A stretch of DNA of 64,000 nt, from positions 30,851 through 94,850 of the forward strand of contig NZBQ01000016.1 in assembly GCA_002688105.1 (NCBI GenBank). The letters are read 5' to 3'. This DNA comes from Dehalococcoidales bacterium (GTDB lineage Bacteria > Chloroflexota > Dehalococcoidia > Dehalococcoidales > GCA-2688105). Under the pieces are notes generated by a model, which was not told the DNA's origin, did no database searches, and saw only the letters and a program-made list of their open reading frames with translations. A program made the translations under genes and the position numbers. Position 1 is the first letter of the stretch. Every line of letters starts with the position of its first letter. Shown one piece after another: positions 2,882-38,872 of this stretch.

Positions 2882-2934
2882 CTTCCAAAAGGCAAAATTA
2901 AAAGCCGTCAGGCAATTATAAATTATGTAGCGAC

Positions 2935-3129: not shown

Positions 3130-3133
3130 TTCC

Positions 3134-3343: not shown

Positions 3344-3369
3344 AACATTTACCTCGAAGTTGATACAAT

Positions 3370-11030: not shown

Positions 11031-11115
<85 letters not shown>

Positions 11116-13422: not shown

Positions 13423-13592
13423 TTAATCTACCTCCTTTTTAGAGGAGAATAGACTATTCACAGGTAGGATGTCAATATTCTCCCCAAATTGCACCTTTGG
13501 ACGTTGTCACTCTAGTTCTTCACCAACACCACTTCCTTCTCAATGGTTGTAACTACATTCCGCACGCATAGGGTAATCCAATGTTCCTTAAG

Positions 13593-13754
13593 GTATTGAC
13601 AACTTCGTAACGATGTATGCATAGTGGATACGATTTTTAAAGCCAGAATCGACCAAAAATATTAAAGGGGGAGTATTGACAACTACAGTAACGATGTGTA
13701 CATAATGGACACGATTTTTAAAGCCAGAATCGACCAAAAATATTAAAGGGGGAG
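13593..13754 (+). repeat. Tandem duplication (80 + 82 bp) of promoter, leader and RBS upstream of the catabolic cluster
   Basis: Each copy begins GTATTGACAACT (-35 TTGACA) and ends with an identical 48 nt, CGATTTTTAAAGCCAGAATCGACCAAAAATATTAAAGGGGGAG. Only copy 2 is followed by the ATG at 13764. Confidence 0.85.
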
Positions 13755-13763
13755 TAGAGAAAA

Positions 13764-14639
13764 ATGGGAAAAATCAGCTATGTTTCGACGCCAAAACTCA
13801 ACGATTACAAGAAGCAGTTCGCGGAGCATCTCATCATGGAGCGTAAAAACGGAATCCTTCAGGTGCGCATGCACACCAACGGTGGACCCTTCAAATGGTG
13901 CTTTCAGGCGCACCAAGCGCTGGAGGAGGCTTGGTCTGTGATCGGACACGACCGTGAAAACGAGCTGCTGATCCTGACCTCCACCGATCCGTACTGGGTA
14001 GGAAAATTTGACTGCGAGGCGTTTGGGGAAACTGAGGCTAATTATACTCCGGATACACATTACGATGCACTATACCGTGGGTGCACTAAGTTAGTGGAAA
14101 ATTTCATTTTCGACATCGATATTCCCACCATCGCCGCGATCAACGGGCCTGGCCTTCACTGGGAGTTTGCATTGTTAAGCAATGTCACCCTCTGCACGCC
14201 AGACTTCGTGTTACGAGATGACCATTTCAAGGGTGGAGTTGTGCCGGGTGACGGCATGAGTCTGTGTTTACAGGGCCTGCTCGGCATCAAGCGTGCCGCC
14301 TCCATGATGTACACGTTGAAAAGCATCGATGCTAAAACCTGCCTGGACTGGGGGGTTGTAAACGAGGTCATTCCGAGGGATAAGCTCTTGGGTCGTGCCT
14401 GGGATATCGCCGAAGAAATCATGAAGCAACCTCGAGTGGTCCGTCGCCTGACGAGCCAGCTCTTGAGGCGTCCCTGGAAACGTCTCCTTGTGGATGACTT
14501 TCAGGTCCACGTTGGTCACGAGATGTATGGCTACGCCCTGTTAGATACGAGGCATCCCAACATTTTTCCGGCGATTGAAGAAACCTTCCGGGCAGAGGCA
14601 GAGGCAGGGCAAGACTCGCAGGATCAGGAAAGCCCATGA
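13764..14639 (+). CDS. Crotonase-fold protein (enoyl-CoA hydratase/isomerase family)
   Basis: 291 aa with the family layout (LILTSTDPYW.GKFD, AAINGPG..., ...GDGMS...G...A..M.). Confidence 0.7.
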   Translation: MGKISYVSTPKLNDYKKQFAEHLIMERKNGILQVRMHTNGGPFKWCFQAHQALEEAWSVIGHDRENELLILTSTDPYWVGKFDCEAFGETEANYTPDTHYDALYRGCTKLVENFIFDIDIPTIAAINGPGLHWEFALLSNVTLCTPDFVLRDDHFKGGVVPGDGMSLCLQGLLGIKRAASMMYTLKSIDAKTCLDWGVVNEVIPRDKLLGRAWDIAEEIMKQPRVVRRLTSQLLRRPWKRLLVDDFQVHVGHEMYGYALLDTRHPNIFPAIEETFRAEAEAGQDSQDQESP

Positions 14640-14715: not shown

Positions 14716-15576
14716 ATGAAACCTTTTGAATATTTAGCACCGAGAAGTATTTCTGAGGCATGTGCTATGCTCTCAGAACATACGGAGGAGGCAAAGTTAC
14801 TTGCTGGAGGGCAAAGTTTATTGTTTTTGCTTGAGCAGAGGCTGATTACTCTTCGACACGTTATAGATATTAAGAAACTCACCCAATTAGATTATATTAA
14901 ACGTGGACAAAATAGTTTGAAGATAGGTGCATTAACCACTCAACGTACTTTAGAACTCTCCCCATTAGTCCAAGAGAAATTTCCTATACTACGTCAGATG
15001 GAAAGAGTGGCGGCACCAATACAAGTTAGAAATTGGGGAACTATAGGAGGTAGTCTTTGTCATGCTGAACCCTCCGGAGATCTAGGCGTTGCCTTAATCG
15101 CTCTAGGAGCAAAAGTCCGGGCAGTAAGTGATAGAGGTGAGCGGGAAGAACTCTTAGAGAATTTTTTTGTTGATTATCTTGAAACTATACTTAAGCCTGA
15201 TGAGATATTAACTGAAGTTGAAGTGCCTACCTTGTTACCTCATACAGGAAGCACTTATATTAAGGAGAGTAGGATGTTTGGGGGGTTCGCTATCGTCTCT
15301 GTTGCGGTAATAGTAACCTTGAATAGAGATACGATAAGTGACGCCCGAATTGTACTAGGAGGAGTAGGCCCTACATATGTAAGGACAAGACAGGCAGAGG
15401 AATATTTGAAGGGGAAGAGGACAAAAGGAAAGTTTGAAGAAGTAGGTACGCTAGCAGCCAACGAGGTACACCCAAGTTCAGATATGGAGGGTTCCGCAGA
15501 GTATAAGTGCCATATTGCAAGGATCATTGTAAACGAGGCTGTAGTTCGATCTATTAAGCAAGCAACGTTTATGTGA
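14716..15576 (+). CDS. Molybdenum hydroxylase FAD-binding (medium, CoxM/CutM-like) subunit
   Basis: LLAGGQSL and GTIGGSLCHAEP motifs in 286 aa. There is no Cys-rich insertion of the HcrB type. Confidence 0.85.
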   Translation: MKPFEYLAPRSISEACAMLSEHTEEAKLLAGGQSLLFLLEQRLITLRHVIDIKKLTQLDYIKRGQNSLKIGALTTQRTLELSPLVQEKFPILRQMERVAAPIQVRNWGTIGGSLCHAEPSGDLGVALIALGAKVRAVSDRGEREELLENFFVDYLETILKPDEILTEVEVPTLLPHTGSTYIKESRMFGGFAIVSVAVIVTLNRDTISDARIVLGGVGPTYVRTRQAEEYLKGKRTKGKFEEVGTLAANEVHPSSDMEGSAEYKCHIARIIVNEAVVRSIKQATFM

Positions 15577-15600
15577 AAAAACAAAGGCAGGTCATTAAAA

Positions 15601-16065
15601 GTGAAACAAGAGTTTGAATTCATATTAAATGGGGAAATCTGCGATGCTTATATTGAACCATGGCACTCCTTGTTAGATCTATTACGAGAGCAGTTCGCTC
15701 TAACTGGGGCAAAATCAGCGTGTCAATCAATGACGTGTGGTGCGTGCACTGTTCTTGTTGATGGTAAAGCTGTGAGGAGTTGCTCGATACTTGCACCTCA
15801 GGTGGAAGGAAGACATGTTGTTACTATAGAAGGGTTAGGTGGGGAAGACGGATTAGATCCTCTCCAGCAGGCTTTTATAGACCACTTTGCAGTACAATGT
15901 GGCTTCTGTACGCCAGGCATGATATTGACCGCTAAAGCCTTACTAGATGAAAACCCTAATCCCACAGAGGAAGAGGTGAGAATGCACCTAACCGGGAATT
16001 TATGCCGCTGTACCGGATACGTAAAAATAGTAGAGGCGATTCTGGCGGCTAGAAAAAAGGACTGA
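15601..16065 (+). CDS. Molybdenum hydroxylase [2Fe-2S] (small, CoxS-like) subunit
   Basis: Two cluster motifs are present: CQSMTCGACTV...C and QCGFCTPGM...CRCTGY. GTG start. Confidence 0.9.
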   Translation: MKQEFEFILNGEICDAYIEPWHSLLDLLREQFALTGAKSACQSMTCGACTVLVDGKAVRSCSILAPQVEGRHVVTIEGLGGEDGLDPLQQAFIDHFAVQCGFCTPGMILTAKALLDENPNPTEEEVRMHLTGNLCRCTGYVKIVEAILAARKKD

Positions 16066-16067
16066 CA

Positions 16068-17441
16068 GTGAAAACAATTATTGAACCCTTCCGAATTAAA
16101 TCCGTTGAGCCCATTACAATAAGTAACAGAGCTGCACGGGAATATTATCTGAAAGCTGCGCATCATAATCTGTTTCTCATACATTCAAGGGATGTAATTA
16201 TAGATCTCCTCACTGATTCCGGTACTGGAGCGATGAGCAGCGAACAATGGGCAGGTATTATGCGGGGAGATGAGAGTTACGCCGGCAGTATCAGTTTTCA
16301 GAGATTTGAACGGGTAGTCCAGAATATCTGGGGGTTTGAATACATTATACCAACTCATCAGGGACGTGCTGCTGAGCGGATATTATTTTCGGTGATATGC
16401 AAACCGGGTGATATTGTACCTAATAACACTCATTTTGATACTACCCGGGCAAATGTAGAATTTCAGGGTGCTGAAGCGCTGGATATTCCTATCCCTGAGA
16501 GCAAAGTTCCTGATATGTATCATCCATTCAAAGGTAATATTGACACTGATCAACTGAAAAAAGTGATCAAAAAGAATGGCATTAAAAAAATCCCTTTGAT
16601 AATGCTGACGATTACAAACAATGCCAGAGGTGGACAGCCCGTATCCATGGAGAATATTCGAGAGACATCTGAAATAGCAAAAGAATTCGGAATTCCGCTA
16701 TATCTGGATGCATGCCGATTTGCAGAAAATGCCTGGTTTATAAAACAGCGTGAAAATAGCTACCATGATAAATCCATCAAATCAATCGTATCAGAAATGT
16801 TTTCCTATGCCGATGGATGCACCATGAGTGCAAAAAAAGATGGTATCGCCAATATTGGCGGGGTATTATGTTCTAATGACAAGGAATTAGCCAAAAAAGA
16901 AAAGGATTTGCTAATTCTTACTGAAGGCTTTCCAACATATGGAGGACTTGCAGGCAGAGACCTAGAAGCAATTGCAATCGGTCTGGGAGAAGCAATGGAT
17001 GAAGATTACCTTCAGTACAGGATTTCATCAACCCAGTATCTGGGGGAACATTTACTGAAAGCAGGGGTACCCATTTTGCAACCCCCCGGCGGGCATGCTA
17101 TTTATATTGATGCTAAAACAATGCTGCCCGATATTAAACCTGAAGAATTCCCCGGTCAATCACTGATTTGTGCATTATACAAAGAAGCAGGAATCCGCGC
17201 AACGGAAGTAGGTAGTGTGATGTTTGGTAAGAAAGATAAACAAACCGGCAAAGAAATCCAAGCAGATATGGAACTGGTTCGGTTGGCAATACCACGGCGT
17301 ACTTATACTCAAAGTCATATTGATTATGTCATTGAAGCAATTTTGCAAGTAAACGAAAGAAAGGAAAATTTACGGGGATTGAAAATGACATACCAAGCAG
17401 AGTATCTCAGGCATTTTTCAGCACAGTTCAAACCGTTGTGA
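16068..17441 (+). CDS. tnaA: Tryptophanase-type beta-eliminating lyase (tryptophan indole-lyase)
   Basis: EPFRIKSVEP, DLLTDSGTGAMS and the PLP-Lys motif MSAKKDG. HFDTT (Asp) and LRHFSAQF (His) occupy the positions that distinguish tryptophanase from tyrosine phenol-lyase. The GTG start lies 2 nt after the small-subunit stop. Confidence 0.75.
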   Translation: MKTIIEPFRIKSVEPITISNRAAREYYLKAAHHNLFLIHSRDVIIDLLTDSGTGAMSSEQWAGIMRGDESYAGSISFQRFERVVQNIWGFEYIIPTHQGRAAERILFSVICKPGDIVPNNTHFDTTRANVEFQGAEALDIPIPESKVPDMYHPFKGNIDTDQLKKVIKKNGIKKIPLIMLTITNNARGGQPVSMENIRETSEIAKEFGIPLYLDACRFAENAWFIKQRENSYHDKSIKSIVSEMFSYADGCTMSAKKDGIANIGGVLCSNDKELAKKEKDLLILTEGFPTYGGLAGRDLEAIAIGLGEAMDEDYLQYRISSTQYLGEHLLKAGVPILQPPGGHAIYIDAKTMLPDIKPEEFPGQSLICALYKEAGIRATEVGSVMFGKKDKQTGKEIQADMELVRLAIPRRTYTQSHIDYVIEAILQVNERKENLRGLKMTYQAEYLRHFSAQFKPL

Positions 17442-17610
17442 TTATTTAAAACGGAAAACGTAATGCTTGAAATGTAAAGGTAGTCGTTAACTATTTTTCA
17501 TATCTTCTCCTATTTATGTTGTAAATATTCACGTTTTATCCAAGAGGTCCAGATGGGACTCTCAAGGAAATCTGGTTATTATTTCCAGGAATTTTGAAAG
17601 GGAACGGAAA

Positions 17611-19962
17611 ATGACTGAGTATAAAGTTATTGGCAAGAGTGTACCCAGGATAGATGCCCTAGAGAAGGTCACTGGTAGGGCCAAGTATACCTCAGACATT
17701 AAAGTGCCGGGTATGCTTTACGCAAAGATAAAAGGAAGTCCCTACCCTCACGCTAGGATTATTAATATTGACACTTCTAAAGCTGAGAAATTACGTGGAG
17801 TAAAAGGAGTAGTGACAGGGAAGGATGCACCACAGAAGCTTATTGGTTCACCCCTTGCTGACATGCCATTATTGGCTAATTATGGCATCGTTCGCTATGT
17901 AGGAGAACCTGTATCTGCAGTAGCTGCAGATACTATTGAGATTGCTGAGGAAGCACTTGATCTAATAGAGGTTGATTATGAAGAGTTGCCAGCGGTATTC
18001 GATGTGGAAGAGGCATTTAGGGAAAACGCACCAGTTATAGTACACCCAAAACTAAGTGATTATGAGCGTCTAGACAAAGACTTCCCAGAGATGGCGTGTC
18101 CTATTCAATTCGAGCCCAATAGGCCTAATGTCTTCACTCATTACAAGGTTCGCCAGGGCGAAGATGTGGAGGTGGGATTCCGCGAGGCTGATCTAGTTGT
18201 GGAGAATAGGTTTGTTACAGCTAGAGTACAGCACGTTCCACTTGAGACCCTGCAATGCATTGCACAGTACGACCTTAATGGAAGCATAACGATAATGAGC
18301 ACATTACAAGGCATATACCTGGGTAAAGCAGTATTTACTAATTATTTTGATATCTCTCCCTCTAAGGTAAGGGTGATTTCCCCATATGTAGGAGGAGCTT
18401 TTGGGTGTAGGACAGGTACATCGATGCAGTGTATCGCCATACTACTAGCACGAAAAAGCTTAAGACCGGTTAAATTGGCTTTTACTCGAGACGATGATAT
18501 GACTCTCGGTTTTCATAACCCTAACTTCGTTATTTATATTAAGGATGGGGTAAGTAAAGACGGTTATTTAACAGCTAGGCATATTAAGATATTGTATGAT
18601 GGCGGGGCATATGTTGCTGAACACTCATTATCTTTTGTTGCCCAATGTTCTGAGAAAGCATTGGCAACATACCGGATTCCTGCTTTTAAATTAGACACTT
18701 ACGGAGTGTACACTAATAAGACCCCAACCATTGCTATGAGGTCCGTTGGTGGTGTACAAGTAGCTTGGGCCCTAGAGCGACAAATGGACATAATAGCAGA
18801 AAGGTTAAATATTGACCCTACAAAGCTAAGAAGGAAGAACCTGCTAAAGGAGGGAGCAATAAACCTAATTGGAGAACCTGTTAGTAGTTTTGGCGCTAAA
18901 AAATGTCTGGATCAAGTGGCAAAATGGATGGAGAAAGCTGAGAAGCCTGAGCCTGAGGCAAACAATGTGTGGAAAATAGGGAACGGGATCTCACTTGGAT
19001 CACACTTCAGCATATGTGCCCCTATCTCAACTGCAACTGTGAAGCTTTACAGCGATGGGGTTATTGAAGTGGCCTATGCAGAAGATGAGCTTGGGCAAGG
19101 TTCTATGACTGTGCTGGCTCAGATCGCTGCCGAGGAGTTTGGAGTCTCCCTAGATAAAGTTAAGGTTGTGCGTGGGGATACAGCCAGTGCTCCTGTAGGT
19201 TTGGCTTCTGTCGCCAGTAGAACTACATATTTCGCAGGAAATGCCTTAGTACGAGCATGCCAAGAGGCTAAACGGAAGATATTTGCGCTGGCAGCGCCTA
19301 TGTTAGAGATGACCGCAGAAGAACTGGAAATGAGCGAAGGAAAGGTCTATGTCAAGGGAGTGCCTGATAAGGCAATTCTTATCAGTGACCTTTTTGGTCC
19401 TACTGGGGTAGCGCATGGATTGGAGACAATGGCAGGCAGAGGGGAACACAGAGATCCATTCATTGAAGCAGACCCCGAGACAGGTCAATCAAAGAAACTA
19501 TATACTTGGCATATTTATGGAGCTTATGGTGCACAGGTAGCAGTTAATGTGCAAACAGGCAAGGTTAAGGTCTTGAAGGCGGTTGGCGCTTATGACATGG
19601 GACGGGCGATAAATCCTAAGCTGTGTGAAGGGCAGATGGAAGGTGGTTTAGGTATAGGTCTAGGTATTGCTTTAAATGAGGCACTGGAATTTGATAAAGG
19701 AGCACTACTCAACCCTAATCTTATTGATTATAAGATGGCTACTGCTATGGAATTACCCAGTGTTGAGAACACCAAATCTATAATAGCAGCAGTTCCCTGT
19801 GATAGTGGACCCTATGGAGCCAAGGGGCTTGGTGAAATGACATCTGTAACCCCTGTGGCAGCAATAACAAATGCTGTCTGTAATGCTTTGGGGATAGCGA
19901 TAAACGAGATTCCAATCACGCGGGAGAGAGTGGTAAGGGCTCTTAAAGAGGCAAGAAAATAG
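17611..19962 (+). CDS. Molybdenum hydroxylase large (molybdopterin-binding, CoxL/XdhB-like) subunit
   Basis: 783 aa with the N-terminal a/b-hammerhead pattern (GKSVPRIDALEKVTGRAKYT.D), GGAFGCR, and AKGLGEM carrying the conserved catalytic-Glu context. It lacks the CODH VAYRCSFR-type loop. Confidence 0.85.
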   Translation: MTEYKVIGKSVPRIDALEKVTGRAKYTSDIKVPGMLYAKIKGSPYPHARIINIDTSKAEKLRGVKGVVTGKDAPQKLIGSPLADMPLLANYGIVRYVGEPVSAVAADTIEIAEEALDLIEVDYEELPAVFDVEEAFRENAPVIVHPKLSDYERLDKDFPEMACPIQFEPNRPNVFTHYKVRQGEDVEVGFREADLVVENRFVTARVQHVPLETLQCIAQYDLNGSITIMSTLQGIYLGKAVFTNYFDISPSKVRVISPYVGGAFGCRTGTSMQCIAILLARKSLRPVKLAFTRDDDMTLGFHNPNFVIYIKDGVSKDGYLTARHIKILYDGGAYVAEHSLSFVAQCSEKALATYRIPAFKLDTYGVYTNKTPTIAMRSVGGVQVAWALERQMDIIAERLNIDPTKLRRKNLLKEGAINLIGEPVSSFGAKKCLDQVAKWMEKAEKPEPEANNVWKIGNGISLGSHFSICAPISTATVKLYSDGVIEVAYAEDELGQGSMTVLAQIAAEEFGVSLDKVKVVRGDTASAPVGLASVASRTTYFAGNALVRACQEAKRKIFALAAPMLEMTAEELEMSEGKVYVKGVPDKAILISDLFGPTGVAHGLETMAGRGEHRDPFIEADPETGQSKKLYTWHIYGAYGAQVAVNVQTGKVKVLKAVGAYDMGRAINPKLCEGQMEGGLGIGLGIALNEALEFDKGALLNPNLIDYKMATAMELPSVENTKSIIAAVPCDSGPYGAKGLGEMTSVTPVAAITNAVCNALGIAINEIPITRERVVRALKEARK

Positions 19963-20138
19963 AGTGGGCTCGATTAGGAACTATCTGTGATAGAACGAGA
20001 TGGTAAATAGAAGTCCCATAATTACTAGAGTGCTGTAACGCTTAATCGATGATTTAATTATGAAGGAGGGAGTTGCCTATGAAGGAAGGATAATTCTAGA
20101 TTTATTAGGTACTAATAGAAAATAGGAGGTTACGATAA

Positions 20139-21335
20139 ATGAAAAAAAGAATGTTAATGCTACTGATTGCAGTGGTAGTGGTAACGAGCTTGGTTATTGC
20201 TGGTTGTGCGGCCCCAGCACCAGTGGAGAAATCACCAATAAAGATTGGTTTTGTTACCGACTACACCGGTTTCTTGGCTATTTATGGCCCGAAATGGGTA
20301 GCAGGCTTCGACCTTGCGTTCAAAGAGATCGGATGGGAAATCGCCGGTAGGAAGATAGAGGTAATATATGAAGACGGGGCAACCGACGAGACTATTGGCC
20401 TTGAGAAGGCAAAGAAGCTAGTGGAAGGTGACGAGGTAGACATCCTATATGGACCGGTTCACTCGTCAACGGTTAATGCTATTGCCCCCTATGCTACGAA
20501 CATGAAGATACCCTATGTGTTGTGCTTGGATAATGAGGTCGTACTTGAGAAATATGAGTATGTTTTTAACCCATTAGGGACCCTGCAGCAGCACTCTTCT
20601 CACTCAGGCACATATGCCTATGAACAGGGCTGGAGGACAGCTTCAATAATAACTCTCGATATGTTGGAGGGACATCTTTTCATGGAAGGCTTCAAAACTA
20701 TGTTTGAAGGGGCTGGCGGGACAATAGTTCAGGAGCAATATACAGACATGGCCACTGTAGATTTTGGCCCCTACCTAGCGAATCTAAAGGATGTCGATGT
20801 AGTAGCGGCGTGGTATCCAGGACCAGCAGGGCCGACGTTCGTTAAGCAGTATAACGAATATGGGTTTCTCGGGAGAGTACCGCTGTTAAGTGTAGTTCCC
20901 AGCGGTTGGATTGTGCCGGTAGAATTTCTCGAGGAACTTGGTGACTTAAGTGTAGGCTTACAGAGTGCAATCATCTACAGCAACGAAATTGACACACCCG
21001 CTAACAAGGCATTCATAGAGTCATCTCTTAAGTACTATGATAAGATGCCTTACTGGGAGGAGGCTGTGGCTTACGCAAGTGCTTCAGTAATTATTGAAGC
21101 ACTAAAAGCAACCGGAGGGGATACTGATCCTGAGAAAATACGCGAAGCTATCGAAACGATGGAGATCGAAACTCCCTTTGGCTCCTTACGCTTCGTTGAT
21201 AGGCCAGCGAGGTTCGCGGCTTATCCGGGGTACATCGTAGAAGTGGATAGAGTTAATGGCGAATGGATCCACCGTATAGTCGCTGAATATGATACTCATC
21301 CGCTAGACGGGATTGCTGAATACCCACCGAAATAG
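20139..21335 (+). CDS. ABC transporter substrate-binding lipoprotein (Leu/Ile/Val-binding protein family)
   Basis: Signal peptide plus lipobox LVIAGC, with type-I periplasmic binding fold sequence features. Confidence 0.85.
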   Translation: MKKRMLMLLIAVVVVTSLVIAGCAAPAPVEKSPIKIGFVTDYTGFLAIYGPKWVAGFDLAFKEIGWEIAGRKIEVIYEDGATDETIGLEKAKKLVEGDEVDILYGPVHSSTVNAIAPYATNMKIPYVLCLDNEVVLEKYEYVFNPLGTLQQHSSHSGTYAYEQGWRTASIITLDMLEGHLFMEGFKTMFEGAGGTIVQEQYTDMATVDFGPYLANLKDVDVVAAWYPGPAGPTFVKQYNEYGFLGRVPLLSVVPSGWIVPVEFLEELGDLSVGLQSAIIYSNEIDTPANKAFIESSLKYYDKMPYWEEAVAYASASVIIEALKATGGDTDPEKIREAIETMEIETPFGSLRFVDRPARFAAYPGYIVEVDRVNGEWIHRIVAEYDTHPLDGIAEYPPK

Positions 21336-21373
21336 TGGTTGAAGATGGTCGCCACTATCCAGAGGATATGCTA

Positions 21374-21433
21374 AAGCTAGGCAGATATAAGACACTGAAA
21401 ACACATCTGCCTAGCTTTATATGTGGTTTTTTG
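21374..21433 (+). terminator. Intra-operon hairpin / partial terminator after the binding-protein gene
   Basis: A 13-bp perfect stem, AAGCTAGGCAGAT...ATCTGCCTAGCTT, followed by TATATGTGGTTTTTTG. Confidence 0.5.
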
Positions 21434-21458
21434 ATTGCTCATCTTGGGAGTCAGTGAT

Positions 21459-22316
21459 ATGGAAGTTTTGTTGATAAATATTCTGAACGGACTTTCGTTC
21501 GGATTCATAATCTTCCTTTTGGGCAGTGGTTTATCATTAGTAATGGGCGTGTTAGGAGTTTTAAACCTAGCTCATGGTGCAATGGCTATGGTGGGCGCTT
21601 ATGTGGGAATATGGATAGCCCGGGCAACAGGCAATTTCTTATTAGGTGTTCTAGGAGGGGTGGTTGTTACCGGGCTTTTGAGCTTTGCGATAGAAAGATG
21701 GTTTTTACGCCGCCGTCATGGACTCATCCTTGATCAAGCATTGCTAACTGTGGGATTTCTCTATATTGCACAAGATGTGCTTCGCTGGATATGGGGACCA
21801 CATCCTCACGCGATCGATGCTCCTTGGATTTTTTCCGGCTCTATATTCATCGGGAAGCTGGGGTTCCCTACTTATCGTCTTGCACTTATGCTTATTGGGC
21901 TAATGGTGGCGATAGCTCTATATCTATTTGTGGAGAAGACCCGGACAGGTGCTATAATTCGAGCTGGGATGGATGACAAAGAAATGATAGTAGCATTGGG
22001 TGTAGACTACCAGCGAACTGCAACCTTGGTCTTCGTTCTTGGAGCAGGCTTAGCCGCCTTTGCTGGTTTCATGGGAGCGCCGGTGTTTGGAGCATACTTG
22101 ACTCTTGGGGTTGATGCCTTGCTTTTAGCAATATTTGTGGTCATTGTTGGTGGAATGGGGTCCGTGCAGGGGGCTTTTCTTGGGGCGATGGTAATCGGCC
22201 TCTTTGATGCTTTTAGTAAAGCCTATGTTCCTGATTTTTCCTGGCATATCCTTTATATTCTTCTAATTGTCATTCTGGTCTTAAGACCAGAAGGGCTTTT
22301 AGGAAAGAGGGTTTAG
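21459..22316 (+). CDS. Branched-chain-amino-acid-type ABC permease (LivH-like)
   Basis: The MEVLLINILNGLSFG start follows a GGGAG RBS (ORF track offers TTG 21435). It is a polytopic membrane protein. Confidence 0.85.
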   Translation: MEVLLINILNGLSFGFIIFLLGSGLSLVMGVLGVLNLAHGAMAMVGAYVGIWIARATGNFLLGVLGGVVVTGLLSFAIERWFLRRRHGLILDQALLTVGFLYIAQDVLRWIWGPHPHAIDAPWIFSGSIFIGKLGFPTYRLALMLIGLMVAIALYLFVEKTRTGAIIRAGMDDKEMIVALGVDYQRTATLVFVLGAGLAAFAGFMGAPVFGAYLTLGVDALLLAIFVVIVGGMGSVQGAFLGAMVIGLFDAFSKAYVPDFSWHILYILLIVILVLRPEGLLGKRV

Positions 22317-22317
22317 A

Positions 22318-23292
22318 GTGGCAAGGCTAGTTGTCGTGAGAAAACCTTGGTTTGTGAAGTTAGCGCCTTACATTATCAGTGCTATTGTCCTTGTCATAGT
22401 ACCGGCGTTTCTTCCTACGTATGTTCAAGGTATATTCACTAAGTTCGTAATTTTTGCGATATTTGCTATGAGTTTAGACCTTCTTTTTGGGTATGCCGGA
22501 CTTTACTCTTTAGGGCACGCGGCCTTTTTCGGTGTAGGAAGCTACACGACCGGCATCTTAATACTTCGTTTTGAAATAGACAGCTTCTGGGTCATTATTG
22601 CTATTGTTGTCCTGCTAAATCTTGTTATTGGTGCTGTCTTTGGAGCTATTGCACTTCGAGCATCTGGGGTATATTTCCTTCTTCTTACTGTCGCCTTGGG
22701 ACAGTTAATTTTTGTTACTGTGTGGAAATGGTATTCAATGACGGGAGGCAATAGCGGTTTGCCGGGTATACCTCGTCCAGAACTTGGCTTTCCTTGGGCT
22801 GCTTGGGACCCGGCCGGTTATTACTATTTCGTTTTGGGTTTCTTTGTCATTTGTTTTTTCTTACTACATCGAATCGTAAATTCTAGTTTTGGGCATACTT
22901 TGAAAGGCATTCAGGCAAATGCATTTCGGATGCGACACTTGGGTTATAACGTCTGGGGCTATCAGTATATCTCCTTTATCATTGCGGCAATATTCTCGGG
23001 AATAGCTGGTATGCTATTTGCATATTATATGGGTATTGCTGTTCCATCACATGCCGGTTTGACTAGCTCTATCCTTGTATTCCTCATGGTGGTTATTGGC
23101 GGTGCCGGTACACTTTTTGGCCCCGTTATAGGAGCTGGAGTGATAGTGCTTCTAGAGTTTTTTGTAAGCTTGTTAACCCCAGAGCATTGGCCTTTGGTCC
23201 TGGGGAGCATTTTTATCGCAACCATCATGTATTTTCGTGGGGGTTTAGGTGTCCACTTGCTAAAGTTCTGGCAAAGGATAAGGTATGACTAA
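22318..23292 (+). CDS. Branched-chain-amino-acid-type ABC permease (LivM-like)
   Basis: GTG start 1 nt after the LivH-like stop. GYAGLYSLGHAAFFGVG motif. Confidence 0.85.
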   Translation: MARLVVVRKPWFVKLAPYIISAIVLVIVPAFLPTYVQGIFTKFVIFAIFAMSLDLLFGYAGLYSLGHAAFFGVGSYTTGILILRFEIDSFWVIIAIVVLLNLVIGAVFGAIALRASGVYFLLLTVALGQLIFVTVWKWYSMTGGNSGLPGIPRPELGFPWAAWDPAGYYYFVLGFFVICFFLLHRIVNSSFGHTLKGIQANAFRMRHLGYNVWGYQYISFIIAAIFSGIAGMLFAYYMGIAVPSHAGLTSSILVFLMVVIGGAGTLFGPVIGAGVIVLLEFFVSLLTPEHWPLVLGSIFIATIMYFRGGLGVHLLKFWQRIRYD

Positions 23293-24040
23293 GGAAACGT
23301 TGAAAGTTGAAAACTTGTCAAAATCTTTCGGAGGTGCCCACGTACTGGAGGGCATTTTCTTCAGCGTAAAAGCTGGAGAATGTGTAGCGATAATCGGACC
23401 CAATGGAGCAGGGAAAACCACTTTGCTGAGTTTAGTTAGTGGTGAACTCCGACCCACAAGTGGTACAATATATCTTTTTGGTCAGATGGCTACTAATCAG
23501 AGCGTACAGCGTCGCGTTCGCCTTGGGTTAGGACGCTGTTTCCAAATAAATAGCCTCTTTCATGGCCTTACGGTGCTTGACAATCTTTTGCTAGCTCTCA
23601 AAAGCTCTCAGTCTCACTATTTCCAAGTGTTTCGGCCGATGACCACTTATACCAATTTACTTGTTGAAGCTAAGCAATTACTAAAATTCATTGGCTTACA
23701 GGAGAAAAAAAACGTGCTTATCAGCGACTTGTCTTACGGCGAGCAACGGCGACTAGAAGTTGCGCTCAGTCTAGCCACAAGGCCTAAATTACTATTATTG
23801 GATGAGCCGAGTGCTGGATTATCCAGCAATGAAGAAATTACCAGCCTTATCAACATACTTAGCGGCCTTACGAAAGACATCTCAATAGTTTTCTCTGCTC
23901 ATGATATGGACCTAGTTTTCCGTCTGGCTCATCGGGTCATTGTTCTTTACTATGGACAAATAATAGCCCAAGGAACACCTGAGGAAATTCAAGTCAATCC
24001 AAAAGTTCAAGAGATTTATTTAGGCGTTCAGGAGGAGTAG
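23285..24040 (+). CDS. ABC transporter ATP-binding protein (LivG-like)
   Basis: Walker A GPNGAGKTT, signature LSYGEQRR, Walker B LLLLDEP. It overlaps the preceding gene by 8 nt. Confidence 0.9.
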   Translation: MTKETLKVENLSKSFGGAHVLEGIFFSVKAGECVAIIGPNGAGKTTLLSLVSGELRPTSGTIYLFGQMATNQSVQRRVRLGLGRCFQINSLFHGLTVLDNLLLALKSSQSHYFQVFRPMTTYTNLLVEAKQLLKFIGLQEKKNVLISDLSYGEQRRLEVALSLATRPKLLLLDEPSAGLSSNEEITSLINILSGLTKDISIVFSAHDMDLVFRLAHRVIVLYYGQIIAQGTPEEIQVNPKVQEIYLGVQEE

Positions 24041-24067
24041 TTCAGTTTTTCAATAGGTGACCTTAAC

Positions 24068-24778
24068 ATGAAGATGTTAGAGATTAATGACGTTCATACA
24101 CATTATGGAGATGCTCATGTCCTGCACGGGATTTCGCTAGATGTTGAGGAGGGTTACACCACTACCATCTTGGGCCGCAACGGAATGGGAAAAACAACGA
24201 CCATTCGCTCAATCATTGGACTTACACCCCCACGCCGTGGCTCAGTTCGTTTCAAAGGGAGGGAAATCACCAACCTTCAGCCACATCAGATTGCTCGATT
24301 GGGTATCGGGTTAGTCGCCCAGGGGCGTCACATTTTTCCTTCACTGAGTGTGAAGGAAAACCTGTCTGTAGCAGCGCGAAGTAGAGGCAAAACTGGAGAT
24401 TGGTCTTTGGGAAGGGTTTATTCCCTGTTTCCGATTTTGAAAGAACGCGCCAATCTTAAAGGTAATCTCCTTAGTGGTGGGGAACAACAAATGTTAAACA
24501 TTGGTCGGGCCCTGATGACTAATCCACAGTTGCTTCTAATGGATGAGCCGTCAGAGGGCTTGGCGCCTTTGATCATTAAAGAAATTGAGCATGTTATCAC
24601 CGAGCTTAAAAGAGAAGGCCTCTCCATCTTACTGGCAGAGCAGAATCTGCGCTTGGGTTTAAGTATGGCTGATTATGTCTACATACTAGATAGAGGTAGA
24701 ATTGTATACGAATCTGTACCTGAAGAGCTAGAAAACAACGAGGAAATCAAGGCTAAGTATCTTGGAGTGACAAGTTAG
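24068..24778 (+). CDS. ABC transporter ATP-binding protein (LivF-like)
   Basis: Walker A GRNGMGKTT, signature LSGGEQQM, Walker B LLLMDEP. Confidence 0.9.
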   Translation: MKMLEINDVHTHYGDAHVLHGISLDVEEGYTTTILGRNGMGKTTTIRSIIGLTPPRRGSVRFKGREITNLQPHQIARLGIGLVAQGRHIFPSLSVKENLSVAARSRGKTGDWSLGRVYSLFPILKERANLKGNLLSGGEQQMLNIGRALMTNPQLLLMDEPSEGLAPLIIKEIEHVITELKREGLSILLAEQNLRLGLSMADYVYILDRGRIVYESVPEELENNEEIKAKYLGVTS

Positions 24779-24827
24779 TAGTTTGCAATACTTTTATAAA
24801 TATTGAAGTAGGGAGAGCTAATCAAAA

Positions 24828-25286
24828 ATGCTAATCGAGGGAAAGTTTACTTTAAATGCACCTATTCAAAAAGTATGGGATTTTCTACTTGAGCCGGGGA
24901 CATTGGCTTCCTGTATTCCAGGGGCAGAAGAAGTCAACGCTGTTGATGACAAGACATACGAAAGTATAGTGAAGCAGAAAGTTGGGCCTATTACAGTGAA
25001 GTTTAAATTTACCACGACTTTAACGGAAATGGAACCACCAAGATATTTGAAGGCAGTTGGCAAAGGAGCCGATATCGGTAAAGCCGGGACATTTGCTCAA
25101 GAAACTTTTGTTTACCTGACCGAAATTTCCGAAGAAGAAGTGGAGGTTTCATATAAGTCCAATGTCAGCTTAGTTGGACGATTGGCCGTTTTTGGAGACC
25201 GGGTAATGCGAAGCAAATCAAAGTCGGTGGGAGAGGAGTTTACCAGAAATTTACAGGAGAAACTGAAAAGTGACCTGGCTAAATAA
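24828..25286 (+). CDS. CoxG-like SRPBCC protein (Mo-hydroxylase accessory subunit G family)
   Basis: 152 aa, MLIEGKFTLNAPIQKVWDFLLEPGTLASCIPGAE, the typical CoxG N-terminus. Confidence 0.75.
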   Translation: MLIEGKFTLNAPIQKVWDFLLEPGTLASCIPGAEEVNAVDDKTYESIVKQKVGPITVKFKFTTTLTEMEPPRYLKAVGKGADIGKAGTFAQETFVYLTEISEEEVEVSYKSNVSLVGRLAVFGDRVMRSKSKSVGEEFTRNLQEKLKSDLAK

Positions 25287-25354
25287 CGCAAGATTAATAT
25301 AATTCTGTTACAATGCTAGTAAAACTAGGTTCTGCTCTATTCCAGTATCTGTTT

Positions 25355-25837
25355 TCATAAAGAAGCGATATCCTCTTCGGCAAGGAGTTTCACTCCTTTT
25401 GCATGGAGTACCATACACGCCTTAAGCGGATCATCTACACGGAGGATAATAACTGCAAACCCTTCTTTCTTCTCAACCATAGCGTACATATATTCTACAT
25501 TCAAATGCTCTTGTGCGATTATCTCAAGCACGTCAGCCAGTCCACCCGGCTTATCGGCCACCTCAACAGCTAGGACATCTGTTTCGATAAAGTGATATTG
25601 TGCCTCGTTCAAAGCCTTCCCACATGCATCAGGATCTGCCGCAATAAGTCGTACTGTTTCAAAATCGCGAGTTCCCGCTAGAGACAACGCATGAAGGTTA
25701 ATGTCTCTATTTGCAAGGTGTCTTGCGATTTCAGCGAGACTACCGGGCCTGTTATCTAAAAAAACAGCTACCTGGCGTACCATAAATGATTTCTCGACCA
25801 TCTTTAGTACTACTCCTTCCAGTTCTTGACGGCACAT
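25355..25837 (-). CDS. Tandem ACT-domain protein
   Basis: Two ACT-like repeats (VAVFLDNRPGSLAEI.., LAVEVADKPGGLADV..). The likely start is the internal Met near 25801. Confidence 0.7.
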   Translation of the reverse strand: MCRQELEGVVLKMVEKSFMVRQVAVFLDNRPGSLAEIARHLANRDINLHALSLAGTRDFETVRLIAADPDACGKALNEAQYHFIETDVLAVEVADKPGGLADVLEIIAQEHLNVEYMYAMVEKKEGFAVIILRVDDPLKACMVLHAKGVKLLAEEDIASL

Positions 25838-25881
25838 TGAAAAGTACCATTAGACTATATCTCTTGGCGTGCAATACCCAG

Positions 25882-26829
25882 CTAGTTTCCCTTTTCAATG
25901 CTACACATGACTTTAGCCAAGGCAATCGAGTGTAACTTTTCATCTGCTTTTGCAGTCCGTGAATCAATTAATATTAGGACTTTTGCTCCTACTGCTACAT
26001 GGATCAACATTCGATTCCCATAATACTGGAGACATTTGCAAAATATATTACCAGCTTCAAGGTTTGGCATAATAATAATGTCCGCGCTCCCGGCTACAGG
26101 TGACTCAATCCCCTTAAGCCTTGTAGAGTTCATATCAATGGCGTTATCAAGGGCAAATGGTCCATCAATAACACAGTTTTCTACTGCACCGTCCTGACAC
26201 ATTTTAACTAGGGCAACGGCATCAATAGTAGACTGAAAATCAGGATGGACCTTTTCCGATCCTGAAAGGAGTGCAACCTTTGGCTTCCTTATTCCCAAAC
26301 CGTGTGCAACCGCTACTGCATTTTGGATGATTTCGAGTTTCTGCCTTATCCCCGGTGAAATATTGATACCTCCATCACTTACCAGCACAAGTTGGTGCCC
26401 ATGTCTCTTCTTATCCTCATACACCGCTACATCACTCAGCAAGCCTCTTCTAAGATCACTAGGTGAGCTGAGAACTACCTGGAGGAACTTTGAGGTAACA
26501 ACACCTCCCTTCATCAATATGTCTGCGCGTCCTGACTTCGCAACGTCTGTAGCTGCAGCGACTGCCCTTTGTGGATCCTTTTCGTGAATAATCTCAAAGT
26601 CTTTTGGATTGACCTCGAGTCCGTGAAGCATGGTAGTAATCCAATAACGGTCCCCCGCAAGAATAGGTACTGCGACGCCTAGTTCTTTTGCCTTGACTAC
26701 CGCTTTTAGTGTCTCTTGTTCGTCTGCAACCACAACAGAAACATATTTAAGGTCACCCTTTTGAGCCGTATTCAGCAACTCTTTGAAGTTTTTTATCATT
26801 TCTAGAAGCCTCCCTGGAGATACTAACAC
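25882..26829 (-). CDS. Phosphate acyltransferase (phosphate butyryl/acetyltransferase family)
   Basis: Pta/Ptb-fold pattern (ADEQETLKAV..A.ELG, VSDGGIN, PNLEAGNI). The likely start is MIKNF at 26799. Confidence 0.75.
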   Translation of the reverse strand: MLVSPGRLLEMIKNFKELLNTAQKGDLKYVSVVVADEQETLKAVVKAKELGVAVPILAGDRYWITTMLHGLEVNPKDFEIIHEKDPQRAVAAATDVAKSGRADILMKGGVVTSKFLQVVLSSPSDLRRGLLSDVAVYEDKKRHGHQLVLVSDGGINISPGIRQKLEIIQNAVAVAHGLGIRKPKVALLSGSEKVHPDFQSTIDAVALVKMCQDGAVENCVIDGPFALDNAIDMNSTRLKGIESPVAGSADIIIMPNLEAGNIFCKCLQYYGNRMLIHVAVGAKVLILIDSRTAKADEKLHSIALAKVMCSIEKGN

Positions 26830-27023
26830 ATTCAGTGATCAGCGAATCCTATCCTGCCTGCTCATAAGCCATGGTGACATTCTACCACACTAATAGGCTA
26901 TGACCTGACCCCAGTAATCAGTCCATCTTTAAAGTTAGTCCCATCGACACAATTGCTTATATTGTGACATCAGTAGTGATCAATTGAATTTGTAAGAGTT
27001 TAGCAGGTCTTACGTATAAATTA

Positions 27024-27053
27024 TTGACAACCGGGTCTTAAGTGTGGTAATAT
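27024..27053 (+). promoter_or_regulatory. Strong sigma-70-type promoter inside the relic
   Basis: TTGACA, an 18-nt spacer, then the extended -10 TGgTAATAT. Confidence 0.5.
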
Positions 27054-27202
27054 ACATAAAAGCCCTGAAAAGGGCTTTCGGTGTTTCTAGATAGGTTGTC
27101 AACCTGATTTTTCAAGCAATGTCAACCTGATTGTTTAAAAACTGAATAGATTTTGGGCCGGTCCCAGCTTCAAAAATTGGCCGGAATTTAAAAATGTGAC
27201 AA

Positions 27203-27249
27203 CCTGACTTTTAATCAGGGTGTCACAGGTTCGAGACCTGTACGGCCTA
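27203..27249 (+). other. 3' portion of a tRNA-Lys(UUU) (anticodon arm to discriminator); candidate att-site relic
   Basis: CCTGA-CTTTTAA-TCAGG, GTGTC, ACAGG-TTCGAGA-CCTGT, ACGGCCT-A. It is close to bacterial tRNA-Lys(UUU) from the anticodon stem onward. The upstream sequence has no D arm and only a 5-bp acceptor partner. Confidence 0.6.
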
Positions 27250-27264
27250 CACTCTCAGAAGACC

Positions 27265-27283
27265 ATCCCCGCCGGGGATTTTT
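27265..27283 (+). terminator. Small hairpin plus T-run after the tRNA-Lys-like segment
   Basis: ATCCCC-GCC-GGGGAT followed by TTTT. Confidence 0.4.
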
Positions 27284-27287
27284 CAAT

Positions 27288-27332
27288 AAAATCAGGGTGT
27301 CAAGACACTAGGTCAACCGACACCCTGATTTT
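27288..27332. repeat. Perfect 14-bp inverted repeat (AAAATCAGGGTGTC / GACACCCTGATTTT) with a 17-nt loop
   Basis: Read directly from the sequence. The arms carry the AATCAGGGTGTC motif that also occurs in the tRNA-Lys-like segment. It could act as a bidirectional terminator. Confidence 0.6.
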
Positions 27333-27524
27333 ATTGTTTCGAGAAGTAAAAGTCAAAAGTACCTATACAGATTATTTTTGCTAAGAGGTTGTGTTCGTAG
27401 GACGGGGAGATTGAGTAGAGTCGAACTATACCTGAAACAAGGATGCTATGCTTTGTTTAGTCCGGTTCCAGTCTAACATTATAACTGGACTCCTTTTTGG
27501 GGGGCAGGTCATTTCCATCTAATA

Positions 27525-29318
27525 TTAGACAACTATGCTTAATAGCTCGTATCTATCCCCATCTAAAAGCACCAAGCCCTTGGTGCTAATCTTAAGTAAA
27601 GGCATGGTGCACATGGTCACGAACTCCAGGTTCGTCTGTGGTGCAATTAAAGTGCAACCCATTTCTCGCCACGCTTTCATTAGATTGTCCTGAGCCTTGA
27701 CCATCTCATCGAAAGGCAAGTCGGCCACCAGGCCATTCAACGGTGTTGGCAATGTTGCCACAAGCTTCCCCTGCCGAACAGCAGTAAAACCTCCATCCAT
27801 CTTAACTGTCTCGTTTGCCGCTACAGCCATATCTTCATCTGAAGCTCCGACGAGCACGATGTTCTCATTGAACACGTTTGCCGTCATCCCAATACACCCT
27901 TCACGAATATTGAAACCTTTGATAAAAGCCACACCGATCTCACCGGTTCCAAAGATTCTATCTATCATAGCAATCTTGTTAATCCCTTGGCTGGGGTCTG
28001 CCTGAATCTCACCGTTGACAACAGGTAGCGTCTCATGTGCCTCCAGTGCTTCCATTGTTCCATCTCGTGTGGTTATCACTCGTGCATTAACAGTTGGCCC
28101 AGCACCTGCTGGTGCCGGTACGCGGAAGTCCTCGGCTTTCAGAACACGGCTAATATTCATTGTTCCGTAGAGCCATTTTGGATACTCTGGTTGTTTTAAC
28201 TGTCTGGTAAGCTTACCATCCTCCACCCATACTTCTCCATTTGCAATAACCTTTGAGATTTGGAAATCAACCAGGTGTTCGACGAGCAGGATGTCGGCAT
28301 ACCTACCGGGCGCAATGATTCCCATGTCATGGTTAACTCGGAAGAACTCTGCCGGCTGTATCGTTGTCATCTGGATAGCCTTTATCGGATCCAATCCGTT
28401 CTTGATAGCTGTGCGTACTGAGTCGGCCAGATTACCACCTATGAGAGCGTCCGGGGTGAGTACATCGGTACATAGCACGCAGGTGCGCGAGGCGTGACCA
28501 CGCTGTGTGACCATTGGAAGAAGTTGCCGGGCATCATTGCACGCGCTGCCCTCTCGAACCACGATTTGCAGTCCAAGTTGAGTCTGGCGAATCGCCTCTT
28601 CAAGTAACACAACCTCGTGATTATTCAACGGGCCAGAAGCTATCCACCCATTCAAACCGCGTTCATCGTGCATCCAAGCGCCGTGGCCAGTGGGAACCTT
28701 ACCCTGGCGCAGACATTCCTCAAGTAACCGTAGGAGTCCTCGATCGCGACGCTCCCGCTGTAGTATCAGGTCGTAGCCAACCTCTTCAAGCCCTTTGGTT
28801 TCAGGCCAATTGAGAGCCTCAAACAAGTCTTCAATGGTTGGCACATTAGGTGATGGTGGGAAACCTAAGCAACGATTCTGGGAGTAACAGAGGGTGGGTA
28901 CAAGGAAGATCGGCTTTACCGGAGTCAGCAGCACTTCATCTAGAAAAAACCGAACAGCCTTGATGCCATTCACGATGGCATGTCCATAGAAACCATCTGC
29001 AAAAGCTGTAGTTCCATGCAAGAGCCTACAGGCAGCGAAGACCGTCGAATTGGTGTAGGTATGCCACTGGTGTGTGTGAGGGTCGACAAGACCCGGCACC
29101 AGAAACTGCCCCCCTGCATCTATAACCTTGGTTTTTGGACCAACCGTATACTCAATGTCTCCTAGTGCGGCGATACGAGAATCTTTGATAGCTATACCGT
29201 CAGTCTGGATGCCCCCTGTATGCACGTTAACTATCTGACCGTTAATAATCACTGTGTCTGCAGATTCATACCCCATAGCTACGTCTATGAGGGATTCACG
29301 CTCAAGCTTTACTGCCAT
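27525..29318 (-). CDS. Adenine-deaminase-family amidohydrolase (divergent)
   Basis: 597 aa with an Ade-like layout (GGQFLVPGLVDPHTH...LLHGTT) and an Ade-type C-terminal domain. The motif after HxH is QWH rather than the IES I recall in Ade. Confidence 0.55.
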   Translation of the reverse strand: MAVKLERESLIDVAMGYESADTVIINGQIVNVHTGGIQTDGIAIKDSRIAALGDIEYTVGPKTKVIDAGGQFLVPGLVDPHTHQWHTYTNSTVFAACRLLHGTTAFADGFYGHAIVNGIKAVRFFLDEVLLTPVKPIFLVPTLCYSQNRCLGFPPSPNVPTIEDLFEALNWPETKGLEEVGYDLILQRERRDRGLLRLLEECLRQGKVPTGHGAWMHDERGLNGWIASGPLNNHEVVLLEEAIRQTQLGLQIVVREGSACNDARQLLPMVTQRGHASRTCVLCTDVLTPDALIGGNLADSVRTAIKNGLDPIKAIQMTTIQPAEFFRVNHDMGIIAPGRYADILLVEHLVDFQISKVIANGEVWVEDGKLTRQLKQPEYPKWLYGTMNISRVLKAEDFRVPAPAGAGPTVNARVITTRDGTMEALEAHETLPVVNGEIQADPSQGINKIAMIDRIFGTGEIGVAFIKGFNIREGCIGMTANVFNENIVLVGASDEDMAVAANETVKMDGGFTAVRQGKLVATLPTPLNGLVADLPFDEMVKAQDNLMKAWREMGCTLIAPQTNLEFVTMCTMPLLKISTKGLVLLDGDRYELLSIVV

Positions 29319-38499: not shown

Positions 38500-38594
38500 A
38501 AATCCCCTGGGCAAACAGCCTCAGTTAACCTTGCAGCATAAAGAATAGACAGTATCGGTTGATTTATTCTGGAGAGTATGCTAACCTTTGGCTG

Positions 38595-38872
38595 GAAAAG
38601 CAATGACGGAGAAGAGTAAGAGGATAACGAGCACCTAGCGAGTCTGGTAAGGTGAAAGCAGATGTGCTTGCCCCCTGAAAATCCCTCCCGAGCTACCAAC
38701 CGAACCGTAGTTTATAAATGAGACGACTTAGTAGGCTTGGTCGGGTGCGCCAGCCGTTATCACTGGCAATGGCATGATGATATGCCTTAAACGAGTGCTC
38801 CCACCTGAGGTGGGGGAAATAGGGTGGTACCACGGGTTTGATAAATCTCGTCCCTAAAGGGCGGGATTTTTT
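38595..38872 (+). promoter_or_regulatory. T-box riboswitch leader (Ile) controlling ileS, including its terminator (38845-38872)
   Basis: Stem I elements are present (AATGA..AGAGTA K-turn region, AGCGAGTC, GGTGAAAG distal loop). The T-box sequence is AAATAGGGTGGTACCACGG. The terminator stem ATCTCG(T)CCC-TAAA-GGGCGGGAT is followed by TTTTT. The candidate specifier is ATC at 38681-38683. Confidence 0.85.

Follow-up and report, generated by a model that had tools for sequence, protein, structure and literature searches.

A displaced 3′ tRNA-Lys(UUU) fragment in a marine Dehalococcoidia genome, very probably the scar of an integrated genomic island

In lambda-type integration, the attachment site of the element (attP) combines arm-type integrase sites and sites for bending proteins with core half-sites that lie around an overlap. 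Genomic islands that enter tRNA genes split the gene on integration and restore it, and displaced tRNA-gene (tDNA) fragments mark the island ends; an attP centered on the anticodon (class ‘A’) was found in 2083 of 3919 islands (PMC4383910). Within the class Dehalococcoidia, the passages of McMurdie et al. (2009, PMC2764846) drawn on here describe islands at tRNA-Lys in Dehalococcoides strain 195, repeated tRNA fragments, islands of low GC content and regions of high plasticity near the replication origin. An outward promoter at the end of an element, Pcirc, has been described for ICEclc (PMC5812530). Here we analyze a locus in a 64,000-nt stretch of DNA, hereafter the window, from a Dehalococcoidales bacterium of a marine, uncultured Dehalococcoidia lineage. 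At positions 27024–27283 a promoter-like site, a hairpin, a tRNA-like segment and a terminator follow one another. The original prediction, made from the letters alone, read this arrangement in two ways: as a passive attachment (att) site scar that happens to sit behind a promoter, or as an expressed tRNA-like decoy RNA. The elements that it described are all confirmed where it had placed them.

Identity of the tRNA-like segment

Two minus-strand genes leave a 725-nt gap (Table 1), and the segment within it is very probably the displaced 3′ two-thirds of a tRNA-Lys(UUU) gene, the scar of an old integrated genomic island, and as such a DNA scar rather than a gene. It is an already known kind of integration scar and not a new tRNA-like RNA gene. 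The comparison that carries this conclusion is with the tRNA itself. We scanned one genome per species with the variable-loop and T-arm core of tRNA-Lys as the query, which returned more than 119 stretches, nearly all of them from Dehalococcoidia, with multiple copies in several genomes. Intact tRNA-Lys(UUU) copies number 56 in Dehalococcoidia (sequence GGGCCGTTAGCTCAGTTGGTAGAGCACCTGACTTTTAATCAGGGTGTCACAGGTTCGAGACCTGTACGGCCTA), and 64 fragment copies retain the 3′ part only. Against the intact tRNA, positions 27202–27250 are identical at all 48 tRNA positions and at the next C, and the 25 positions upstream match in 7 of 25, which is the chance level. What had been noted as a likeness to tRNA-Lys(UUU) from the anticodon stem to the discriminator, with a TTCGAGA T loop, is in fact identity with the real tRNA; by comparison, annotated Enterococcus phage tRNA-Lys genes share 88.6% identity with the fragment in BLAST. 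Identity in the window begins one base before the anticodon stem, and the left boundaries of the 64 fragments cluster 10–16 nt to the left of the search pattern, which places them in the anticodon loop or stem.

The complete architecture is observed in relatives. In L021 and L030 (L-numbers denote the related loci or contigs compared with the window), a single contig runs from an intact tRNA-Lys through a tyrosine integrase gene (PF00589) and ∼5 kb of island genes to the fragment. The fragment is there a direct repeat near an intact tRNA-Lys, an arrangement that the original prediction had named as one that would speak against its proposal; in the window, no such partner lies nearby. The L030 integrase also matches the Arm-DNA-binding domain PF14657 (E = 1e-4), at 22.2 bits against a cut-off of 22.3. 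Both integrase genes (L021:235–1557 and L030:1526–2800, each on the minus strand) run antisense into the tRNA-Lys gene. The reverse complement of the tRNA-Lys 3′ part codes for the final ∼20 residues of each integrase, which places the attP core inside the 3′ end of its gene. In tblastn searches, integrase queries match every tRNA-Lys copy, and because the integrase ends are encoded antisense to the tRNA, the match at window positions 27198–27254 is the fragment itself.

The composition of the DNA changes at the same place. The GC content of third codon positions (GC3) passes from ∼0.52 to ∼0.39 at the fragment; it is 0.32–0.47 in 14716–26799 versus 0.48–0.64 on both sides, with 0.49–0.57 to the right of the fragment, and the right-hand step lies exactly there. 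The island is therefore the DNA to the left of the fragment.

We propose that an island integrated into the tRNA-Lys(UUU) gene through a tyrosine-recombinase crossover that probably fell in the anticodon loop. The island’s own copy of the tRNA 3′ part would have repaired the gene at one end, and the original 3′ part, together with the gene’s terminator, would have been pushed to the island’s far end. Positions 27202–27283 would then be the displaced piece, an attR-type junction, and positions 27024–27201 the conserved terminal arm of the island, comprising the outward promoter, a hairpin, the two TGTCAACCTGATT repeats with their A-tracts and the left core half-site. The island would be a fossil, its integrase and repaired tRNA-Lys partner no longer adjacent. 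A chimeric read-out transcript from the predicted promoter is plausible; if the promoter fires, an RNA of ∼225 nt ending at the tRNA terminator would arise as a by-product.

Table 1. Positions of the island-end, tRNA-fragment and flanking features in the window
Feature	Position	Strand	Description
Mur-ligase/FolC-like gene	5099–6463	−	Synteny with tRNA-Lys broken
Truncated tyrosine integrase	11382–11819	+	Catalytic domain only, PF00589, E = 2e-24, GC3 0.37
Island cargo (probable)	14716–26799		Low-GC3 metabolic gene block
Phosphate acyltransferase gene	25882–26799	−	Left neighbor of the gap
Sigma-70-type promoter-like site, outward-facing	27024–27053	+	TTGACA, 18 nt, TG-n-TAATAT
Promoter parts	−35 TTGACA 27024–27029; TG 27045–27046; −10 TAATAT 27048–27053	+	10/12 matches
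First hairpin	27059–27078		AAAGCCCT-GAAA-AGGGCTTT; 8 bp, GAAA loop, directly 3′ of the promoter
Direct repeats of TGTCAACCTGATT	27097–27138 (27097–27109, 27120–27132)	+	Each followed by a T/A-rich run; repeat families D1, D2
A-tract-rich island arm	27139–27194	+	CTGAATAGATTT..GGCCG.TCCAGC..AAAT; conserved blocks, alignment A1
Recombination core (probable)	27195–27227		13-bp inverted repeat TGTGACAACCTGA / TCAGGGTGTCACA around CTTTTAA 27208–27214
Displaced 3′ tRNA-Lys(UUU) fragment	27202–27250	+	tRNA positions 26–73 and the following C; anticodon arm, variable loop, T arm, acceptor 3′ strand, discriminator
Anticodon stem CCTGA/TCAGG	27203–27207/27215–27219	+	Loop CTTTTAA 27208–27214
T stem ACAGG/CCTGT	27225–27229/27237–27241	+	T loop TTCGAGA; variable loop GTGTC
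Acceptor 3′ strand ACGGCCT	27242–27248	+	Discriminator A 27249
tRNA-Lys trailer with intrinsic terminator	27251–27283	+	Hairpin 27265–27279, then T5
Second hairpin	27284–27339		Perfect 18-bp arms CAATAAAATCAGGGTGTC / GACACCCTGATTTTATTG at 27284–27336, 17-nt loop AAGACACTAGGTCAACC; I1, D3
Minus-strand promoter-like site	27328–27356	−	TTGACT, 17 nt, TAAAAT; faces the fragment from the right
Adenine deaminase gene	27525–29318	−	Right neighbor of the gap

The conserved island end and the recombination core

The island end (∼27024–27201, roughly 180 nt) is common to the window and six related loci, L100, L101, L121, L072, L079 and L128. Its left arm is partly common to L069 and L075 as well, in which the inner arm is present and the promoter and hairpin are absent. 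The left arms of 63 fragments fall into ∼40 unrelated families, the largest being that of the window with eight members; many different islands therefore use the tRNA-Lys site. Conservation of the arm starts at the −35 hexamer, and the sequence and neighboring genes upstream differ, the genes being a TRAP transporter and IclR, PFOR, or a carboxyl transferase.

The near-consensus promoter is present just as the original prediction had it, although a match of this quality alone is at the chance level (2 found versus 1.8 expected in a 1-kb stretch). The promoter is supported because it is conserved in the related loci and not by its consensus match alone. All six loci that share the island end retain both hexamers and the TG of the extended −10, around a 17–18-nt spacer that is unrelated; hexamers kept around a diverged spacer in seven loci support the view that the promoter there is real. 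A passive att-site scar was a sound suggestion, except that the promoter does not happen to sit there, being part of the conserved island end. The 8-bp GAAA hairpin that follows is also found as described, and is terminator-like on both strands. A hairpin at this position is kept in seven of seven family members in two versions (AAAGCCC...GGGCTTT and TGGCTC...GGGCCA), with changes on both sides in two of its pairs. The tRNA-Lys segment lies ∼140–150 nt after the presumed transcription start, not the ∼190 nt downstream given earlier.

The direct repeats are similar in sequence to the left core half-site, and every family member keeps one or two copies unchanged. They are probably protein-binding sites of the arm type, predicted to serve the integrase or accessory proteins. 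Within 27097–27330 there are six copies of the arm sequence (TGTCAACCTGATT / AATCAGGGTGTCA), which, like the second hairpin at 27284–27336, had escaped the original prediction. Over the whole window the motif gives 9 matches versus 1.6 expected, a count that 0 of 100 shuffles reach. A tiny open reading frame in the second repeat, ATG-TCA-ACC-TGA, was rejected as coding, as it has 3 codons and is missing in the members with a single repeat.

At the junction, the left half of the core comes from the island and the right half from the tRNA. The sequence described earlier as an anticodon stem is there, and is really part of a 13-bp inverted repeat (I5, 27195–27207/27215–27227) that is complementary at 12 of 13 positions. 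Among the fragments, the island-derived left halves have a mean symmetry of 2.8 of 8 outer positions versus 2.0 for the tRNA’s own, and the left half in the window, at 7 of 8, has the highest of all. This repeat most likely represents a tyrosine-recombinase core, as it has the form of two half-sites with a 7-bp overlap; we infer its role, and that of the arm sites, from the anatomy of the locus and from general knowledge of lambda-type sites.

Variants of the junction occur on three metagenome contigs, L126, L127 and L128, where fragments with the same acceptor strand and trailer carry compensatory T-stem variants (GTGGG/CCCAC, CAGGG/CCCTG). With CTTCTAA as the anticodon loop, L126 and L128 would have the anticodon UCU, and L128 combines the window’s full left arm with a perfect 10-bp palindrome around the loop. 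In L127, ∼60 nt to the left of the fragment, a reading frame whose end is helix-turn-helix-like (...KEYGVSHEAVRRTIKRLPDF* in our own translation) stops on the TAA of the anticodon loop. L127 is a different island family, with a terminal gene that overlaps the att core.

The conserved promoter could also belong to a regulatory transcript of the island end, which reads across att and reports or controls the integration state. In the integrated form such an RNA would stop at the tRNA terminator, and in a circle or tandem array it would run across the junction, in L072 and L121 antisense into the integrase 3′ end. In favor are the −35 and extended −10 elements kept in seven loci around an unrelated spacer, the hairpin kept in two versions, the start of arm conservation at the −35 hexamer, the antisense integrase remnants that follow the fragment in L072 and L121, and the precedent of Pcirc, itself a promoter that points outward from the end of an element (PMC5812530). 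However, an outward promoter is no general feature of the 63 arms: at 10 of 12 matches, 5 have one that faces the fragment and 11 one that faces away; L069 and L075 keep the inner arm without promoter and hairpin; the promoter, in contrast to Pcirc, lies antisense to the integrase; and the family members are related by descent, which makes their conservation a weak proof. We therefore put this reading forward tentatively and consider it rather unlikely. It is compatible with the scar explanation, to which it would add a function for the promoter and not for the tRNA shape.

The tRNA-Lys trailer, the island cargo and the missing partners

The small hairpin and T-run reported after the segment are likewise in place. 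The right flank (27251–27339), which holds this terminator and the second hairpin, is 85–97% identical after intact tRNA-Lys in L011, L031, L070, L085, L106 and L116, and the same trailer is found behind fragments whose left arms are of many kinds. The trailer is thus shared with intact tRNA-Lys loci, and the terminator is therefore the tRNA gene’s own. The second hairpin, loop included, is 90–100% identical in ∼28 loci of different Dehalococcoidia species, and the Mur-ligase-like proteins of those species are only 47–58% identical to that of the window. Its 5′ arm copies 13 nt of the tRNA (positions ∼38–50, AATCAGGGTGTCA), and conservation of the trailer stops sharply after ...CCTGATTTTAT. 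In nearly all the trailer loci listed, as read by eye, a TCAA ∼25 nt after the hairpin and an adjoining ATTTTA are kept and the sequence between them varies; on the minus strand this is a retained promoter-like TTGAnn, 17 nt, TAAAAT. An IHF-type consensus was sought by eye in this semi-conserved TCAA motif, with no convincing match.

Copies of the trailer hairpin are also seen away from tRNA-Lys, isolated or rearranged, in L026, L084 and L108. At L108:4129–4260 the copy stands beside an apparent 3′ fragment of another tRNA, inverted; the copy in the last 260 nt of L084 (reverse strand) has no left arm; and at L026:616–652 the hairpin is joined directly to an anticodon-loop-like CTTCTAA, as would result from a deletion between the two AATCAGGGTGTCA repeats.

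In the window, the arm promoter and the minus-strand site form convergent promoter-like sites around the att core. Together with the 53-nt trailer hairpin, they might mean that att transcripts sense or control the integration state, and that islands carry and spread the trailer as a replacement terminator and secondary recombinase site, a speculative proposal that we hold to be improbable. If true, a spread trailer would homogenize the region downstream of tRNA-Lys across the whole bacterial class.

Several observations weigh against the interpretation of the fragment as an island scar. The cargo consists of ordinary metabolic genes, with a Pfam content of molybdopterin dehydrogenase subunits, a beta-eliminating lyase, a Liv-type ABC transporter, CoxG, an ACT protein and the phosphate acyltransferase. 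No att repeat marks the low-GC3 block on its left side, so the island cannot be bounded in the classical manner and its left end is undefinable. An intact tRNA-Lys, a 5′ half or a second fragment was not found in the window, and the same search carried to ∼10 kb beyond either edge (∼83 kb in all) returned only tRNA-Ser and housekeeping genes. No integrase match lies in the 14.7–27.2 kb block, and none adjoins the fragment. Finally, in ten loci the trailer has heterogeneous, partly defense-like genes on its right, with no integrase among them, and it may be purely native DNA or may also be carried by islands. As the partner tRNA-Lys and the integrase are absent, the island must be taken as decayed or rearranged.

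Assembly data from the same region give an indirect hint that a second copy exists. Three contigs of different assemblies, reaching the site from the adenine deaminase gene, stop at 27187, 27202 and 27294 (the ends of L003, L005 and L006; that of L005 is at 27202), and L135:1–258, from another assembly of the same population, is identical to position 27339 and then continues into unrelated DNA (TTCAGCCAGTTTTCAAG...). These breaks and L135 are what is expected of a 138-nt block (27202–27339) that is longer than the assembler k-mer and present in at least two copies in the population, and they suggest such a block; alternatively, the contig breaks suggest strain polymorphism at the site. For the second copy, an intact tRNA-Lys with the same trailer, which we did not retrieve, is the obvious candidate.

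In eight other Dehalococcoidia loci (L011, L015, L031, L052, L085, L092, L095 and L122), intact tRNA-Lys is preceded, at a distance of 1.3–3.8 kb, by a Mur-ligase/FolC-like gene of the same strand. An ancestral tRNA-Lys site beside the corresponding gene of the window was considered and dropped: there is no tRNA remnant at 1780–3400, and an inversion model is unsupported. The truncated tyrosine integrase directly after tRNA-Leu (11031–11115), with tRNA-Cys (10871–10946) nearby, is a remnant of another island, and neither tRNA qualifies as the paired repeat of the present one, as no 12-mer of either recurs in the window. A phage or virus origin was also rejected. BLAST of 27000–27360 against phage records matched only generic tRNA-Lys genes, and in IMG/VR the arm motif gave one chance match in a coding region and the trailer hairpin none. 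Elsewhere in the window, a ∼84-nt tandem duplication at 13590–13760 (ggtattgacaac...aaagggggagt, twice) lies just upstream of an enoyl-CoA hydratase gene (13764–14639) and contains a promoter-like TTGACA.

Other readings and comparison with described systems

The second reading of the original prediction was an expressed tRNA-like small RNA, here of ∼225 nt, with a T arm and an acceptor-like end that mimic tRNA-Lys, through which it could be a ligand of, or a decoy for, tRNA-binding proteins, RNase P or T-box leaders. The segment does lie between a promoter-like site and a terminator, the region folds better than shuffles (z = −3.3), and the Rfam tRNA model RF00005 gives 27178–27249 a score of 31.6 bits, a marginal pass against the gathering score of 29. 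However, the Rfam score exceeds its threshold because the genuine 3′ 48 nt carry it, the hairpins and the tRNA arms account for the folding, and the terminator, as shown above, is that of the tRNA gene. The tRNA part is identical because it is a piece of a real tRNA, and it recurs behind ∼40 unrelated flanks. In the cmscan alignment, four of four D-stem pairs and acceptor pairs 1–72 and 7–66 are broken, and the sole acceptor-like pairing is GGCCG/CGGCC. This agrees with the earlier statement that there is no D arm and that only GGCCG (27179–27183, inside the A-tract-rich arm) can pair with the acceptor 3′ strand.

That pairing is not conserved. The window, L100 and L072 keep a GGCYG able to pair with the acceptor strand, but the partner is absent in four of eight family members (L101, L121, L079 and L069), and an alternative proposed by RNAalifold, the conserved GCCG at 27157–27160 with the acceptor strand, shows no change on both sides. 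A check for covariation found changes on both sides in just two places, the 5′ hairpin and the L128 T arm, the latter inherited from the tRNA. The proteins flanking the gap have identical copies on TARA Oceans and other marine metagenome contigs, and the copies of the intergenic region in these contigs are 99.9–100% identical to one another; comparative signal is therefore absent from them. ARAGORN calls no tRNA at 27178–27250 and labels every checked intact copy tRNA-Lys(ttt). In one scan of twelve loci it called zero fragments, and in another it did call one fragment locus, L035, apparently via a chance pseudo-cloverleaf. The 7-bp acceptor stem and D arm of a functional tRNA are both lacking in the fragment. 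The only T-box leader in the window (38594–38858, plus strand; Rfam 105.8 bits), which lies upstream of a 1022-aa gene (38895–41963), is ∼11 kb away, with no link shown to the fragment. An expressed tRNA-like decoy is thus unsupported, and we consider it very improbable.

Decay of a tRNA-Lys gene in place, its 5′ third mutated and no mobile element involved, would account for the lack of a nearby integrase and partner tRNA and for an Rfam alignment over the full 72 nt, yet it is scarcely credible given an abrupt boundary that coincides with the GC3 step, 48 of 48 identical tRNA positions beside an upstream 25 at chance level, and an upstream sequence homologous to the arms of other fragments and not to a tRNA 5′ part.

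The main value of the island-scar explanation is a corrected annotation. A promoter, a tRNA shape that passes Rfam and a terminator look like a small-RNA gene, and the apparent unit is an island junction put together from three unrelated sources. With ∼40 arm families among 63 fragments, this marine lineage joins the Dehalococcoidia in using tRNA-Lys(UUU) heavily as an integration site, and ∼12 kb of transport and catabolic genes are marked as horizontally acquired. A functional outward promoter or trailer hairpin, if true, would be a modest addition to how integrative elements manage their target tRNA.

Compared with the attP of lambda, the window has repeats and A-tracts within ∼110 nt of the core and a 7-bp overlap, as lambda does; the repeats in the window resemble the core half-site, whereas the lambda arm sites are unlike its core sites. 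With Pcirc, the locus may share a constitutive-looking promoter at the element end that points outward across att when integrated (PMC5812530). Pcirc, however, is fused in sense upstream of the integrase after excision, and the integrase remnants across the junction in L072 and L121 are antisense to the promoter; no sense drive of the Pcirc type was seen in these two loci, and the cognate integrase of the arm family was not found. The Dehalococcoides islands come from the same bacterial class. The dnaA gene lies at L141:6378–7745, ∼0.4 kb past window position 64000, with gyrB and hisS further on, and from its position the island junction is ∼37 kb from the likely replication origin, which resembles the origin-flanking high-plasticity regions in the passages of PMC2764846 considered here. 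The block in the window differs in having no reductive dehalogenase genes and in belonging to a marine, uncultured lineage, and the 180-nt arm family and the trailer hairpin go unmentioned in those passages.

The closest match is with islands of the Islander type (PMC4383910). The window departs from them in its metabolic cargo and in the lack of a regenerated tRNA-Lys and an integrase in at least 83 kb, and therefore the island-defining pair cannot be shown within it. It agrees with them in the identity to the cognate tRNA 3′ part, the boundary at the anticodon loop or stem and the foreign composition on the island side with native composition on the other, and its relatives show the order of intact tRNA, integrase, island and fragment that such islands have.

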